Source: Elusimicrobiota bacterium
GTDB taxonomy: Bacteria > Elusimicrobiota > Elusimicrobia > UBA1565 > UBA9628
Direction of reading: 5' to 3'
Length of the DNA stretch: 64,000 nucleotides
NCBI GenBank assembly: GCA_016218545.1
Contig: JACRDQ010000020.1
Coordinates: 34,455-98,454 of the forward strand
The notes beneath the pieces were generated by a model. It did no database searches. It was not told where the DNA came from and worked only from the letters and a program-made list of their open reading frames with translations. Of the stretch, positions 28,226 to 64,000 are shown in pieces; within the stretch, counting starts at the first letter, position 1; each line of letters begins with the position of its first letter. The translations under genes and the position numbers were made by a program.

Positions 28226-28270
28226 GAAATGCAACATGGCTGGTGTCAGACACCAGCCATGTTGCATTTC
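28226..28270. repeat. 45-bp perfect palindrome, copy 1 of a dispersed palindromic repeat family.
   Basis: GAAATGCAACATGGCTGGTGTC-A-GACACCAGCCATGTTGCATTTC. Intergenic, between two minus-strand genes. Confidence 0.6.
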
Positions 28271-41128: not shown

Positions 41129-41198
41129 ACGGTGCCTGGCATTGTATTAATTGTATTTTTCTCCAGAAAAATACAATTAATACAATGCCAGGCACCGT
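41129..41198. promoter_or_regulatory. 70-bp perfect AT-rich palindrome in the divergent MarC/MFS promoter region, a candidate operator.
   Basis: ACGGTGCCTGGCATTGTATTAATTGTATTTTTCT-CC-AGAAAAATACAATTAATACAATGCCAGGCACCGT. The arms are exact reverse complements. Confidence 0.6.
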
Positions 41199-49234: not shown

Positions 49235-50083
49235 ATGCCCGCGATCTTCGACTGCCGCTCAGTGGCGGCCCGGTACATGGACTGGACCGCCGGAGCCCTC
49301 AAGCAGCTCTCATCCACCCCGAAGCTGGCCACCCTGCTCGACGTCTCGCGCGGCGACCCCGGGAACCTGCAGTACCGGGACTACATCGACAAGGACAGCC
49401 GTCGGCTCGGCGTACCCTGCATCCATCGCGAGGTCCGCATGCCGGGCGAGGTGCCCACGGCCCTGGCCAGCCTCAACGAGGACCCCGACGTCACCGGCAT
49501 CATGGTGCTCTATCCCGTGGGCGCGCCCATGCGCGACGAGGAGGTCATGGACCTGGTCTCCCCCGCCAAGGACGTGGAGGGCCTGCACTCCACGAACCTC
49601 GGGTACCTCGTCAAGTACCGCCGCCTCCTCGACCAGGCCCGCGGGGTCAAGTGCGTGGTCCCGGCCACGGCCAAGGCCGTGGTGAAGACCCTCCTGAGCT
49701 ACCCCCAGGTCAAGGTCGAGGGAGCCTTCGCCGTGCTCATCAACAACTCCATGCGCGTGGGCAAGCCCCTGGGCCTCATGCTGGAGAACCTCGGGGCCAC
49801 GGTGGTCAAGTGCTACGACAAGACGCCCCGGTCCCTGATCGAGGACTGCGTGCGGCGCGCGGACATCCTGGTCACGGCCGTCCCTGACCCGGGGTTCAGG
49901 ATCGACCCCGGGTGGATCAAACCCGGCTCAGCCATGGTCGACGTCTCCTTCGAGGGCAACGTGGACTTCGAGGCCCTCAGCCGCGGCCCGGCAGGCATCG
50001 TCACCGCCCCGGACAACCGCATCGGCAGGGTCACGCGCGCCATGACCTTCGTGAACCTCGTCTATTGCGCCCAAGCCCGCTGA
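49235..50083 (+). CDS. folD: Bifunctional methylenetetrahydrofolate dehydrogenase/cyclohydrolase.
   Basis: VPATAKAV, NNSMRVGKPL and ADILVTAV motifs, and overall FolD architecture. Confidence 0.85.
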   Translation: MPAIFDCRSVAARYMDWTAGALKQLSSTPKLATLLDVSRGDPGNLQYRDYIDKDSRRLGVPCIHREVRMPGEVPTALASLNEDPDVTGIMVLYPVGAPMRDEEVMDLVSPAKDVEGLHSTNLGYLVKYRRLLDQARGVKCVVPATAKAVVKTLLSYPQVKVEGAFAVLINNSMRVGKPLGLMLENLGATVVKCYDKTPRSLIEDCVRRADILVTAVPDPGFRIDPGWIKPGSAMVDVSFEGNVDFEALSRGPAGIVTAPDNRIGRVTRAMTFVNLVYCAQAR

Positions 50084-50140
50084 CCCTGCCGGAATGCAAC
50101 ACGGCTGGTGTCTGACACCAGTTGTTGCATTCCGGCAGGG
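50084..50140. repeat. 57-bp imperfect palindrome, copy 2 of the family. Lies between the convergent folD and HExxH genes and may act as a bidirectional terminator.
   Basis: CCCTGCCGGAATGCAACACGGCTGGTGTC-T-GACACCAGTTGTTGCATTCCGGCAGGG. Shares GAATGCAACA...CTGGTGTC.GACACCAG...TGTTGCATT with copy 1. Confidence 0.55.
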
Positions 50141-50848
50141 TCAACGGGCGGACATGAAGTCGGTGAGGGCCTTCTCGCCCGCCGGGGTGATGAAGAACAG
50201 GTAGGAGCGCACCGCGAAGCCCTGCGGGTCCATGTCGTGCAAGAGGAGCTGGATCTGGTCCGCGGACTCGAAGGCGGTCCTGCCCTCGGCCTTGAAGCGC
50301 CGGACGAGCTCCTTTCGCTGCGGCTCGGCCATGGTGGCCAATTGGAGGGCGTAGGAGATGAACTCCCCCTGCTCGCGCGGGATGAGCTTGGGCGCGGCGG
50401 CGTAGGCGCGAATGGAGATGTGATGCCCTGCCTCGTGCGCGATGTAGGAGGTCCAGAGCTCGCGGCTCGGAGCCACTCCAAGAGGGGTCGCATCCGGCGG
50501 CGTTTTGGCGAAGACCCGGAAGGTCTTGATGTAGACCTCGTCCGTGTCCGTGTCATAGAAGCCGTGCACGTTGTCGATGATGGGGCTGATCTTCCGGTAG
50601 CTCTCCGGGAAGCGGTCCAACACGTGGATGGTGAGCCGCGCCTTCATCGGGTAGCCGCGCTCGGCCATGAAGCGCTCGGCTCTGGAGAAGCCCTCGCAGG
50701 CCGCGGGCAAGCTCGAGGCCTCGTCTGAGACCACCGTGACCCAGGAGGAGCCGCAGTCGCTGCGGACCCCGGCCGGTTGGGAGGAAGCGGCGCGGGCGGA
50801 CGCCGGCAGGAGCAGGAGAAGAGCCAGCCCGAAAGCCGCGTTCCTCAT
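50141..50848 (-). CDS. Secreted protein with HEAGHH (HExxH) motif, a putative zinc-dependent hydrolase.
   Basis: Signal peptide, single HExxH motif, no other recognisable domain. Confidence 0.45.
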   Translation of the reverse strand: MRNAAFGLALLLLLPASARAASSQPAGVRSDCGSSWVTVVSDEASSLPAACEGFSRAERFMAERGYPMKARLTIHVLDRFPESYRKISPIIDNVHGFYDTDTDEVYIKTFRVFAKTPPDATPLGVAPSRELWTSYIAHEAGHHISIRAYAAAPKLIPREQGEFISYALQLATMAEPQRKELVRRFKAEGRTAFESADQIQLLLHDMDPQGFAVRSYLFFITPAGEKALTDFMSAR

Positions 50849-55995: not shown

Positions 55996-56153
55996 CCTAG
56001 TATTGATTCTAGCGGGAAACGCAGGAGCCCGGTATCCGTATTCTCCGCACGACTGACTCGAAAAAGACCCGAATCCCCGACGCGAGCTGAAAGCTGATCC
56101 GGACCATGACCGCCGTCATGGCGGCTGTCCCTTTCCGGGTCTATACTCTTCCC

Positions 56154-56454: not shown

Positions 56455-57759
56455 ATGAAACTGCTTCTCGTCCTGCCCACCACCGTCGACAAAAACGGCG
56501 TGCCCACCCGCTCCAAGATGCGCTGGGTGCTCGGCCTTGCCATGCCCTACGTCGCGGCCCTGACGCCTCCCTGGGTGGACGTGAAGATCGTCGACGACCG
56601 CCTCAACGACATCGACTACGACGGAGGCTGGGACATGGTGGGCCTCAACACCACCATCGCCACCTGCACCCGGGCCTACCAGATCGCGGACGAATTCAGG
56701 AAGCGCGGGGTCGCGGTGGTCATGGGCGGCTTCCACGCCACCCTCTTGCCGGAGGAGTGCCTCCAGCACGCCGACGCGGTGGTCGAGGGCGAGGCCGAGC
56801 ACGTCTGGCCTCAGCTCCTCGAGGACTTCAAGGCCGGCAAGATGCGCCGGCGCTACCGCGCCGACAAGCTCCACGACCTCAAGGGCCTGCCCCTCCCCCG
56901 CTGGGACCTCATGGACCGGCGCAGGTACCTGGCGCCCTACATGCCGATCCAGACCACTCGGGGCTGCCCCTTCCACTGCAGCTATTGCGAGGTGCCGGTC
57001 TTCTACGGCGGCACCTACCGCCACCGGCCGGTCGGCGAGGTCCTTTCGGACATCAAGCACATCCCCACCCGCAAGGTCCAGATCGTCGACGACAACATCG
57101 TGGGCAACCGCGCCTACGCCAGGGAGCTCCTCACCGCGATGATCCCGCTGAACGTCCGGTTCAGCTGCCTGTGGACCATCAACACCTCTCGCGACCCGGA
57201 GATCCTCGACCTGGCCAAGAAGGCCGGCATCTACCACGTCAACATCGGCATCGAGTCCATCTCGCAGAAGTCCCTGCTCTCGGCCAACAAGAGGCAGAAC
57301 CAGGTCAAGGACTACATCGACATGCTCGGCGCGCTCGAGAAGCGCGGCATCTTCTACTCCCTCAACTTCATGTTCGGCCTCGACGAGGACACCCCGGAGA
57401 TCTTCGCGGAGACCATGGACTTCCTCAAGCAGATCAAGGCCCCTATGGTCTTCTTCAACACCGCCACCCCGCGGACCGGCACGGCCATGCGCGCCCAGCT
57501 CGAGAAGGAGGGCCGCATCCTCAACCCCGTGGCCGACCGCTACACCGGCATGGAGTGCCTCTACGTGCCCAAGAACATGACGCCGCGGCAGGTCGAGGAC
57601 GGGGTCTGGAAGTGCTTCCGGGATTTCTACTCGCCGCTCGCCATCGCCAAGCGCTTCCTCTGGCCCCCGCAGTGGGCGTACCTGGGCCAGGGCCTGCCCT
57701 CCAACATCATCTTCTCCTGGGCCGTGCGCAGGAAGAAGGACCCGGTCGACTTCTACTAG
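56455..57759 (+). CDS. B12-binding-domain radical-SAM protein.
   Basis: N-terminal B12-binding region (VAVVMGGFHATL), canonical RGCPFHCSYC motif. TGGTATAAT extended -10 about 10 nt upstream. Confidence 0.8.
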   Translation: MKLLLVLPTTVDKNGVPTRSKMRWVLGLAMPYVAALTPPWVDVKIVDDRLNDIDYDGGWDMVGLNTTIATCTRAYQIADEFRKRGVAVVMGGFHATLLPEECLQHADAVVEGEAEHVWPQLLEDFKAGKMRRRYRADKLHDLKGLPLPRWDLMDRRRYLAPYMPIQTTRGCPFHCSYCEVPVFYGGTYRHRPVGEVLSDIKHIPTRKVQIVDDNIVGNRAYARELLTAMIPLNVRFSCLWTINTSRDPEILDLAKKAGIYHVNIGIESISQKSLLSANKRQNQVKDYIDMLGALEKRGIFYSLNFMFGLDEDTPEIFAETMDFLKQIKAPMVFFNTATPRTGTAMRAQLEKEGRILNPVADRYTGMECLYVPKNMTPRQVEDGVWKCFRDFYSPLAIAKRFLWPPQWAYLGQGLPSNIIFSWAVRRKKDPVDFY

Positions 57760-57770
57760 ACCGGGCTAGG

Positions 57771-61116: not shown

Positions 61117-61167
61117 ATCCTCCCCCCATGGTTTGATACCATGGGCCTCACGGAAGGGGGAGGCACG

Positions 61168-62367
61168 ATGATCTTCACGAACGGGCGCATCGAGAAGTAC
61201 GCGGACTCGCTGCTGTGGGGCCTGACCACGGCCCGGCCGGGCTTCAAGAAGGGGGACGTCGTGCTCATCCGCGCCGGCCTGGCAGCCATGCCCCTGGCCG
61301 AGGCCCTGCAGGCGCGGATGCTCGACCGGGGTTGGAACCCGGTGCTCAGGACCGACCCGACCCCGGTCTGGGAGCGGAGCTTCTTCCAGCGCTCGGGCAA
61401 GGGCCAGCGCGCCTTCCTGCCTCCTGGAGAGGAAGCGTTCTACTCGGGCCTCCACGGGCTCGTGGCCCTGCGGGCTCCGGAGTCCATCACCCACCTGCGC
61501 GACGTGGACCCAAAGCGCATCAGCGAGACCGCCATGGCCCGCAAGCCCGTCAGGGAGATCATGAACCGGCGCGAGGAGAAGGGCCTCTTCGGCTGGACCC
61601 TCTGCCTCTACCCCACCCGCGAGCCCGCGGCCACGGCGAAGATGAGCTTCTCCGAGTACGCGCGCCAGATCGAGAAGGCATGCTTTCTCGACGAGATCGA
61701 CCCGGTGCGGCGCTGGAAGGAGATCCACCGCGAGGTGGCCGAGATCAAGAAGGGCTTGAACGGCCTGGGAGCCTGCACGGTCCGGCTCGAGAGCCGGAGC
61801 ATGGACCTCTCCGTCCGCGTGGGCGAGAGGCGCCGCTGGCTGGGCATCAGCGGCCGGAACATCCCCTCCTTCGAGGTCTTCACCTCGCCGGACTGGCGCG
61901 GGGCGCGTGGGGTCTACTACGCGGACCTGCCCTCCTACCGGAGCGGGAACTACATCTCGGGCCTGCGCGTCGAGTTCAAGGACGGCCGGGCCGTCAAGGT
62001 GACGGCCGGGCAGGGCGAGGAGTTCGCGCGCCGCATGACCTCCATGGACGCGGGAGCGGGCCGCATCGGGGAGCTCTCCCTCACGGACCGCCGCTTCTCC
62101 CGCATCGACCGGTTCATGGCCGAGACCCTCTTCGACGAGAACTTCGGCGGCCGCCATGGGAACTCCCACATCGCCATGGGCTCCTCCTACACCGACGCCT
62201 TCGACGGGGACCAGACCAAGCTGACCAAGGCTCGGCGCGAGGGCCTGGGGTTCAACGATTCTTGTCTCCACTGGGACATCATCAACACCGAGGACAAGCG
62301 CGTGACCGCGCGCCTGGCGGGCGGCAGGACCGTCACGGTCTACGAGGACGGGAAGTTCGTCGTCTAG
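61168..62367 (+). CDS. M29-family (aminopeptidase T/PepS-like) aminopeptidase.
   Basis: FDENFGGRHGNSHIAMG region is typical of M29. ATG at 61168 is preceded by a GAAGGGGGAGG RBS. Confidence 0.65.
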   Translation: MIFTNGRIEKYADSLLWGLTTARPGFKKGDVVLIRAGLAAMPLAEALQARMLDRGWNPVLRTDPTPVWERSFFQRSGKGQRAFLPPGEEAFYSGLHGLVALRAPESITHLRDVDPKRISETAMARKPVREIMNRREEKGLFGWTLCLYPTREPAATAKMSFSEYARQIEKACFLDEIDPVRRWKEIHREVAEIKKGLNGLGACTVRLESRSMDLSVRVGERRRWLGISGRNIPSFEVFTSPDWRGARGVYYADLPSYRSGNYISGLRVEFKDGRAVKVTAGQGEEFARRMTSMDAGAGRIGELSLTDRRFSRIDRFMAETLFDENFGGRHGNSHIAMGSSYTDAFDGDQTKLTKARREGLGFNDSCLHWDIINTEDKRVTARLAGGRTVTVYEDGKFVV

Positions 62368-62678
62368 GAGCCTGAGCAATTAGTGGCATGCCCCTGCGAA
62401 CCCCGAGCCTGAGCCGGATGCAAGGCGCGACGACCGAGCATGCCGAGGCATGTGAGGGAGAAGCAACGCAGCAGCCGGCCAGGGGAGGGTTTCCCCTCCC
62501 CATATCAGGAATTGCGCGGGCCTTGCCTGCGCAATTCCTCTTGGAAAGGGGCCGCTCGCCGTCGGGCTGCGCCTTCGTTGCTCGCCGCTCAGATAGCTAC
62601 GGCTATCCTCGCTTCTCGCGCCTCGGCTCGCTCCAGCGGCGAGCGGCGCAGGGGCATGCCACTAATTGCTCAGGCTCC
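62367..62678. repeat. 312-bp element bounded by perfect 32-bp terminal inverted repeats (GGAGCCTGAGCAATTAGTGGCATGCCCCTGCG) with nested internal hairpins. MITE-like or structured RNA.
   Basis: Left inverted repeat 62367-62398 and right inverted repeat 62647-62678 are exact reverse complements. Internal stems GGGGAGGG-TTT-CCCTCCCC and GGAATTGCGC...GCGCAATTCC. Non-coding. Confidence 0.55.
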
Positions 62679-62780
62679 TGGTAGGCACCTGGTCCCAGCC
62701 CCTGCTGGGCCCTCTGCCGTCCCCTCTTGGGGCCATCGGCCCTCCCTGAGGCCTCCTTGCGGGCCTAAACTCATGGGGCA

Positions 62781-64000
62781 TGATCCCTATCAAGAAAACC
62801 ATCGCCCTCTCCCTGGCCGTCATCCAATGCTCCTGGTCCTTCGGAGCCGCCGACGCCCTGGCCCAGAACATGGTGCAGTCCGCCCGGGTCTCGGGCGTCC
62901 AGCAGACAGGCGTGAGCGTCATCGCTCCCCTCAGCTATTCCCGGACCTCCGCCCTCGCCGGCGCCTCCGTCCTGGGAGGCTCGAACATCCAGGTCACCGG
63001 AGCCCTCCCCTCCCTCTACGCTCCAAGCGTCGGCGTGGAGGCCCAGGGCCCCGACGCCGCGCCGGAGACCATGGTCCCGGCCGGTCTCTCCCCCGAAGCC
63101 CTGACCTTCTCCATGGCCGAAGCCGGACCCCTCCCCGCGGTCCCGGGACGGCTGGCTCCCGCGACCGTCGAGGCCGCTTCCAGGCAGGTCGGGGAAGCCA
63201 TCAAGACCCTGGACCTCTCGCAGACCGCTCCGGCGGAGTCCTCGAAGGGCTCGGCCGAAGGCATCTTCGCCGCGCTGGTGGGAGAGAAGCTCATCAGCCC
63301 CTCAGGCACGGTCGACGCGGCCTCCCCCTCGCCGGTCCGCTCCGCGCTGAGGCGCGGCTTGGGCCTCTTCAAGGCCGCGCCCTCGACCGCCGAGAACGCC
63401 GAGCCCCAGGTCCCTGCTCCGGCCCCGGCGGCCCAGCCGAGCGCCAAGCCCTCGATCTTCCAGCACCCTGCCGCGCGCCGCATCGCGGCCCTGGCAGGCG
63501 CGGTCGCGGTCGCCGCCTTGGCTCCCCTGCTGACCGCCAACGTCGGGCTCGTGGCCGCGGCCGGAAGCATCACGCTCAGCGTCATCGGCATCCCGCAGAT
63601 CATCCACAATTTCCGGGCAGGCAAGGAGGGCGTCAAGGAGCTCGCCATCGCCAGCCCCCTCATCTGGTTCGCGGCCGCGACCCTGCTCACCGTGGTCTCC
63701 ATCGGCCAGGGCTCGAGCATGTGGTGGAACGCCGCCAACATCGCGGGCGTGCTCGAGAGCGCGGCCGTGCTCGGCCAGATCAACTGGTACAAGAGGGACG
63801 CGAAGGCCCTCAAAGCCACGCTCGCGACCGTGGGCGCGGTCCTGGCGCCCCTCCCCCTGATCGCCATGCAGGCCTTCATGCCGCTCACGGCCTGGGTGGA
63901 CCTGGCCTTCACCGCGGCCATGGGCCTGCTCTGGGTGCTCAACTGGCCCCAGATCAAGCAGAACTACAGGCTCTTCAAGGAAGAGGGACGGGCTCCCAAG
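62781..64000 (+). CDS. PQ-loop repeat membrane protein with long Ala/Pro-rich N-terminal extension. 3' end is outside the window.
   Basis: Open frame with strong GC3 bias from ATG 62781 to the window end. The track does not list it because no stop falls within the window. Two PQ-loop motifs (GIPQIIHNF, NWPQIKQNY). N-terminal signal peptide. Confidence 0.55.

Follow-up and report, generated by a model that had tools for sequence, protein, structure and literature searches.

The 64,000-nucleotide stretch of Elusimicrobiota DNA analyzed here (contig JACRDQ010000020.1, positions 34,455 to 98,454; hereafter the window) contains a 312-bp segment, at 62367-62678, that begins on the stop codon of an M29 aminopeptidase gene and is bounded by perfect inverted repeats. 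We find that this segment is non-autonomous mobile DNA of the miniature inverted-repeat transposable element (MITE) type, an ordinary kind of feature that here represents a previously undescribed family in uncultivated Elusimicrobia from groundwater. A preliminary description made from the sequence alone had offered a MITE-like mobile element as one explanation, and this is borne out by copies at unrelated loci and in other genomes, by the TA duplication around one of those copies (locus L001), and by the absence of the element from the closest orthologous loci. The 312 bp probably consist of two diverged MITE units of about 157 bp in opposite orientation, with their long ends outward and their short ends meeting in the center; from sequence comparison, we put the probability of this arrangement at roughly 0.55. 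The arrangement as one long palindromic unit is appreciably less probable, and either way the element is a MITE. Its features are those of the class: terminal inverted repeats, a target-site duplication, copies at different loci with presence/absence polymorphism, and a small, noncoding body (under about 500 bp; here 312 bp, in units of about 157 bp).

Related copies at other loci

We searched for further copies with exact 20- to 21-mers, a method that needs exact matches of at least 14 nucleotides and would therefore miss diverged relatives or a parent insertion sequence (IS) with nearly matching ends. A 21-mer of the repeat, run against one genome per species (185,579 species genomes), identified one locus, L001, in an Elusimicrobia metagenome-assembled genome (MAG; JACQWX010000088.1), and a 20-mer scan of the JGI metagenomes also identified one, L002. 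A further copy, L008, lies on a Logan contig that was fetched through its aminopeptidase homolog (81% amino acid identity). Counting the window, related sequence is present in four data sets (NCBI MAGs, JGI, and Logan) and at three distinct loci. Additional copies and a target-site duplication were the checks on mobility named in the preliminary description, and both were found: related copies occur in three other data sets (L001, L002, and L008), and the intact copy at L001 is flanked by duplicated TA within CTAG.

The L001 copy (2446-2602) is a free-standing 157-bp element that is 97.4% identical to window positions 62525-62678 over 154 nucleotides by blastn; a separate comparison gives 149/154. 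Its site is the TAG stop codon of an unrelated TPR gene, and its flanks read CTA/GGAGCC…GGCTCC/TAG, with TA (or CTAG) on either side. Its own ends, GGAGCCTGCGCAATT and AATTGCTCAGGCTCC, form an inverted match of 14/15, or 18 nucleotides counting CTA. At L002, positions 84-115 match the right repeat of the window element at 31 of 32 bases and are followed by TAG; the interior is unrelated, and the contig starts inside the element. At L008, positions 2321-2344 match the left repeat at all 24 visible bases before the contig ends, and this end is placed on the same aminopeptidase stop codon as in the window (GTGGTCTA/GGAGCCTGAGCAATTAGTGGCATG). The left junction is GTCTA/GGAGCC in L008, as in the window, and CGCTA/GGAGCC in L001. 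All visible junctions have the form C-TA-(GGAGCC…GGCTCC)-TA-G, except on the right side of the window element, where TG stands in place of TA. Contig breaks, as at two of these copies, are typical of repeats.

The L002 contig also carries a 1.43-kb IS701-family IS (119-1549) encoding a 461-amino-acid DDE_5 transposase (2e-89) on the minus strand, with CTAG on both flanks. The CTAG that this IS occupies is exactly the one restored where the MITE copy ends. We considered it as the parent of the element and rejected it, as it belongs to the IS701 family and its ends (TACTACTGTGTCATAAG) are unrelated. The same right flank, (C)TAGAATCCC, is found at L001 2603-2612 and L002 1550-1559, in surroundings that are otherwise unrelated. 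Homology of the two flanks was also rejected: both start with CTAGAATCCC, and there is none past about 10 nucleotides. The shared flank reflects either an extended target preference or coincidence.

The distribution of the element among orthologous aminopeptidase loci is patchy. According to the identity matrix, the element is missing from the closest orthologs, L003 (85% amino acid identity) and L004 (84%), but present in L008, which is less closely related. L004 and L007 (77%; from the same MAG as L001) are syntenic with the window and continue past the stop codon with other sequence and no trace of the element. L003 has no significant similarity to it (local alignment z of about 2), and CAGGCTCCTAG is present there 130 nucleotides past the stop. 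The aminopeptidase genes share 80 to 85% nucleotide identity (75% over the last 150 nucleotides for L008), compared with 97 to 100% among the element copies. By this measure the element postdates the split of its hosts, and it has moved from locus to locus and between genomes.

Some orthologous loci have small structures of their own. The 132 nucleotides past the stop in L003 (6201-6337) begin with TA/GGCGCC and end with CAGGCTCC/TAG, reminiscent of the element termini. A related insertion at the same hot spot may have decayed here, but we dropped this same-site segment as a degenerate relative because its local alignment score (z of about 2) is not significant. L004 (6211-6263) and L007 (5423-5611) share an orthologous intergenic hairpin, AGGTGCCAGGCTTGA…TCAAGCCTGGCACCT. 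About 155 nucleotides, ending in CTAG, separate the hairpin arms in L007 and suggest another small insertion there. A textbook intrinsic terminator, absent from the window, lies at L007 5612-5655.

Boundaries and structure of the element

A repeat search of the window returned inverted arms at 62366-62398 and 62647-62679 that are 33 nucleotides long, 100% complementary, and spaced by 248 nucleotides. The flanking TA and T(G) supply the outermost A/T pair of these arms, so that the element proper spans 62367-62678 with 32-nucleotide arms, exactly the 312 bp and perfect terminal repeats of the preliminary description. Within the window, the 32-mer occurs at just these two sites, even with three mismatches allowed, and it has no match in 100 dinucleotide shuffles. 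The left repeat (62367-62398, plus strand) is the outward long end of what we call unit A, and the right repeat (62647-62678, plus strand), which recurs at 32/32 in L001, is the long end of unit B. Each 33-nucleotide arm also holds a near-palindrome, AGTGGCATGCCCCT.

The nested hairpins of the preliminary description are likewise real. One lies inside unit A at 62482-62501 (GGGGAGGG-TTTC-CCCTCCCC) and forms part of a subthreshold ftsZ-DE match discussed below; another pairs 62551-62561 with 62637-62647 (GCCGCTCGCCG/CGGCGAGCGGC; sequence and repeat search). At 62507-62539, the short unit ends AGGAATTGCGCGGGC and GCCTGCGCAATTCCT face each other across CTT (62522-62524), with 15-nucleotide arms that match at 93%, and folding of both strands places this central hairpin at the apex of the long palindrome. 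The whole 314 nucleotides fold into a single long imperfect hairpin with predicted energies of -206.6 kcal/mol on the plus strand (z = -10.7) and -209.9 kcal/mol on the minus strand (z = -11.6). The fold is strong, and alike on both strands, because the DNA is palindromic.

The preliminary description also held that the interior contains no open reading frame (ORF). A mechanical ORF of 98 amino acids is in fact present (62388-62684, plus strand), but the label of noncoding stands, since this sole ORF has no Pfam match and no homolog among 5.8 billion proteins, a search in which it also served as bait for copies miscalled as genes.

The aminopeptidase gene (61168-62367, plus strand; Pfam Peptidase_M29, 7e-99) lies in an ORF that opens at 61141, with 61168 as the likely start, and its product is 100% identical to MBI5623356.1 from an Elusimicrobia MAG. 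Its TAG stop (62365-62367) lies within the CTAG target, and, as previously noted, the G of this codon is the first base of the left repeat. The left copy of the duplicated target, TA in C-TA-G (62365-62366), thus completes the stop codon with the first G of the element. The right copy (62679-62680) reads TG as a result of one substitution at 62680, as can be seen by comparison with GGCTCC/TAG in L001 and L002. Taking out the element and one duplicate gives GTCGTCTAGTAGGCACC, with the stop codon intact. The insertion left the protein unaltered, since its C terminus, YEDGKFVV, agrees with those of the orthologs.

A probable pair of inverted units

Alignment of the two halves supports their description as units. 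Unit A (62367-62521, minus strand) is a diverged, inverted copy of the unit of about 157 bp, as judged by aligning its reverse complement with unit B (62525-62678, plus strand), which matches L001 2446-2602 at 97% and lacks the first three nucleotides (GGA) of that copy. The reverse complement of A agrees with B at 32/32 positions of the long end and 14/15 of the short end, compared with 74/113 (65%) of the interior. The local alignment score of A against the reverse complement of B has a z of 26.6, compared with 1.1 for A against B in direct orientation. The short end in the window matches the left end of the L001 copy, GGAGCCTGCGCAATTCCT. A unit with conserved ends and a free interior also matches L002, where the same end is joined to another interior. 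On the two-unit reading, the 32-nucleotide inverted repeat is perfect because the long ends of the two units face outward. What the preliminary description took for the 32-bp terminal repeats of a single element are real inverted repeats, but they are probably the outward long ends of two units.

The CTAG target and its overlap with stop codons

The window contains 16 CTAG sites, against 182 expected from base composition or 80 from a Markov model, a 5- to 11-fold depletion in a genome of 69% GC. At least 5 of the 16 are stop codons of long ORFs with high GC content at third codon positions (GC3). Landing on a stop codon would follow from the targeting of CTAG, whose sites are rare and of which a third or more are stops, together with selection against intragenic hits. 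The stop-codon position is thereby accounted for without any special function. Judging from their sequence, the flanks fit either a TA duplication in the style of IS630/Tc1-mariner or, equally, a CTAG duplication around GAGCC…GGCTC in the style of IS5. The 2-bp and 4-bp duplications are indistinguishable because CTAG is palindromic and the element termini are G…C.

The composition of the window offers two further observations on CTAG and TAG. The stops of 60 long high-GC3 ORFs are TAG in 28 cases, TGA in 30, and TAA in 2, so that TAG use is unusually frequent for a genome that otherwise avoids CTAG. In addition, pairs of CTAG sites 10 to 12 nucleotides apart occur at 55997-56012 (CTAGTATTGATTCTAG) and 57756-57769 (CTAGACCGGGCTAG), with about 0.05 such pairs expected by chance. 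Transposons that target CTAG may have left these pairs behind, either as footprints of excision or as remnants.

The mechanism that we propose draws on knowledge of the IS630/Tc1-mariner and IS5 groups. A DDE transposase acting in trans would bind the conserved ends and move the unit by cut-and-paste. Insertion into the TA of C-TA-G would duplicate TA, or the whole CTAG would be duplicated, both being equally compatible with the flanks. With a unit that starts with G and ends with C, CTAG would be rebuilt on both sides, so that a TAG stop used as the target would be preserved. The regenerated CTAG would then offer a fresh target for a second copy, or for another IS as in L002, and could yield a back-to-back pair; bacterial MITEs are described as inserting into one another (PMC10969869). 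If cotranscribed with the aminopeptidase gene, the element would place an imperfect RNA duplex of about 150 bp in the 3' untranslated region (UTR), a candidate RNase III substrate or 3' stabilizer. Correia and ERIC elements (PMC2649163, PMC10969869) provide the analogy for possible effects at the RNA level, among them a 3'-UTR duplex, RNase III processing, and mRNA stabilization.

Neighboring genes and other palindromes

The gene downstream of the element (62780-64000, plus strand) begins 101 nucleotides past it and runs off the window. It encodes a PQ-loop membrane protein (Pfam PQ-loop, 2.4e-6) with a signal-peptide-like N terminus and has syntenic orthologs in L003, L004, and L007; at the syntenic loci, a PQ-loop/PRK membrane protein is among the products of the downstream genes. 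Housekeeping proteins are encoded in the 17 kb upstream.

Three other intergenic palindromes stand out in the window. A perfect, AT-rich palindrome of 70 bp at 41129-41198 (34-nucleotide arms and a 2-nucleotide center; ACGGTGCCTGGCATTGTATTAATTGTATTTTTCT/…) occupies a divergent intergenic region of this 69% GC genome. It is the sole copy in the window and the fetched loci, and it could represent either a small piece of inserted foreign DNA or an operator or promoter element. The palindromes at 28226-28270 (22-nucleotide arms, 100%) and 50075-50149 (27-nucleotide arms, 96%; between convergent genes) have GAA(A)TGCAACA in common. They may act as terminators in both directions or be bound by a common protein.

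Discussion

Several observations weigh against a pair of MITE units. The right target copy in the window is TG rather than TA, and the central junction, GGC-CTT-GCC, departs from the GGCTCC-TA-GGAGCC expected for an intact pair. Copy number is low, with one locus in each of the two exact scans; the 64-kb window holds just two adjacent units, the JACQWX01 MAG has one match, and no genome is shown with dispersed multiple copies. Two of the four copies (L002 and L008) are cut by contig ends, so that their structure is partial and one flank is visible. No transposase with matching ends was found in the window, among the genes of the 17 kb upstream, or in the fetched loci. Similarly, no autonomous IS with the same ends was found in exact 20- to 21-mer scans of the genome, metagenome, and viral collections or in plasmids. 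In the plasmid collection, blastn at word size 11 gave chance matches only (at most 45 bits), and neither an interior 21-mer nor the exact long end matched any viral contig. Two viral contigs that fit a degenerate end pattern (L009 and L010) are low in GC and unrelated and were dropped as chance matches.

The most serious competitor keeps the element a MITE and changes its basic form. The 312 bp would be one fully palindromic MITE, and the 157-bp copy in L001 would derive from it by an internal deletion of 155 bp between the GCCTG repeats at 62370-62374 and 62525-62529 (plus strand), which would act as microhomology end points. We regard this as possible but doubtful. Such a deletion would produce precisely the left end seen in L001, GGA+GCCTG+CGCAATTCC, although the L001 sequence fits both readings equally. 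The outer repeat is perfect over 32 nucleotides, the L008 left junction carries the long end as the window does, and Correia elements offer a parallel in their long and short forms of 153 to 157 bp and 104 to 108 bp (PMC2649163). However, a single unit leaves unexplained why the central 15 nucleotides match at 14/15 when the interior matches at 65% (a chance of about 0.014 at p = 0.65), nor does it account for the likeness of the internal GCCTGCGCAATT to the terminal GCCTGAGCAATT. A palindrome that spans the whole interior is also not normal for a MITE. Less probable again is a transposon that homes to stop codons, recognizing a TAG stop context beyond CTAG, rebuilding both the stop and a fresh target through its G…C termini, and supplying an RNA duplex of about 150 bp that may have been co-opted as a 3'-UTR stabilizer or RNase III site for the aminopeptidase mRNA. 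If true, this would give the element a harmless safe harbor in CTAG-starved, high-GC genomes and would lead it to insert repeatedly and independently at one and the same stop codon in lineages that differ by 18% (the window and L008).

The same double occupancy, 18% apart, can be cited for a functional RNA or cis-regulatory 3' structure (a terminator, an insulator, an RNase III site, or an ftsZ-DE-like small RNA), perhaps an exapted MITE, which we consider improbable. The predicted fold is very stable (z of about -11), MITE hairpins are able to act on mRNA (PMC2649163, PMC10969869), and Rfam yields a subthreshold match to ftsZ-DE (RF02985) at 62482-62541. We rejected this match as two generic GC hairpins: at 36.9 bits (E = 2e-5), it reaches half of the 72.2-bit gathering score, the linker is missing, and the locus is not beside ftsZ. 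Rfam scans of 61800-63200 and 62300-62750 gave nothing at gathering thresholds, and a consensus scan of 62200-62900 detected no sigma-70-like promoter or intrinsic terminator. Both strands fold equally, as expected of palindromic DNA, the closest orthologs lack the element, and the L001 copy lacks half of the structure. The large structured RNA, terminator, or insulator of the preliminary description is not independently supported, as no Rfam family reaches threshold, no terminator consensus is present, and the palindromic DNA explains the fold. An inverton, in which a recombinase flips the 248-bp interior between the 33-nucleotide repeats and thereby controls the downstream membrane-protein gene, has a geometry like that of known invertons, in that a perfect inverted repeat encloses about 250 bp, the gene that follows encodes a secreted or membrane protein, and each arm holds the near-palindrome. 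It is nevertheless very unlikely, because no recombinase is encoded in the 17 kb upstream or among the syntenic downstream genes of the orthologs, the same sequence stands at unrelated loci with target duplications, and the L001 copy has one long arm only; moreover, there is no internal promoter consensus, and no flipped version was found among the database matches. The least credible explanation is that the segment is not mobile at all and is a local palindromic duplication or an assembly artifact (a chimeric fold-back contig). The source is indeed a MAG, and two related copies lie at contig ends, but the sequence was recovered independently in four data sets at three loci, its flanks are syntenic with orthologs on both sides, and a fresh fold-back is contradicted by halves that are just 65% identical inside.

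The pair of MITE units accordingly remains our preferred reading, and it documents a MITE family in a phylum known almost solely from MAGs, where such repeats are rarely annotated and break assemblies. A conspicuous, hairpin-rich intergenic segment is explained without a new RNA or regulatory device. The element also shows CTAG-targeting elements reaching TAG stops in CTAG-depleted genomes while the protein stays intact, and its 32-nucleotide long end provides a sequence tag for seeking the missing transposase and further copies.

Comparison with known systems

Among known systems, the Correia elements of Neisseria (CREE/nemis) resemble the element in being small (about 105 to 157 bp) and noncoding, with terminal inverted repeats and a TA target, and in having long and short variants, no transposase of their own, insertion polymorphism, and mRNA hairpins that are bound or cleaved by RNase III (PMC2649163, PMC10969869). 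Correia is an accepted family and likewise has no related autonomous IS. However, Correia elements are Neisseria specific, with a 26-bp repeat and a core, and the element terminus GGAGCCTGAGCAATTAG… is unrelated to Correia ends (PMC2649163) and comes from Elusimicrobia. Correia elements also exceed 100 copies per genome, compared with one or two units per assembly here, and no promoter or IHF-site consensus was detected in the element. The likeness to ftsZ-DE (RF02985) is confined to the two consecutive GC-rich hairpins found by cmscan at 62482-62541. Most of the conserved linker is deleted, the GGG/CCC stems account for all of the identity, ftsZ does not precede the locus, and the first hairpin is missing from the L001 copy.

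The junctions fit two transposon groups equally well. A preference of IS630 for TA inside 5'-CTAG-3' and the duplication of TA by its family are described in PMC2170065 and in Tenzen & Ohtsubo 1991, cited there. The element junctions, C-TA-(element)-TA-G, agree with IS630/Tc1-mariner apart from one substitution, although neither a transposase of the IS630 type nor a matching full-length IS was found. MITEPsy1 of Pseudomonas syringae, an IS5-related element of about 100 bp, has 18-nucleotide terminal repeats starting with GG/GA and duplicates CTAG/YTAA (PMC3189936). The element can similarly be read as GAGCC…GGCTC flanked by CTAG, but the two are dissimilar in sequence, no parental IS was identified for the element, and transposition has been demonstrated experimentally for MITEPsy1. 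The ERIC/IRU and YPAL/RU-2 families are, like the element, whole-length imperfect palindromes in intergenic or 3' positions, of 127 to 168 bp (PMC10969869, PMC2229807, PMC2759123). Members of these families are cotranscribed and affect mRNA stability (PMC10969869, PMC2229807, PMC2759123). They differ from the element in phylum, in sequence, and in being high-copy families, and the palindrome of the element is better explained by two units.

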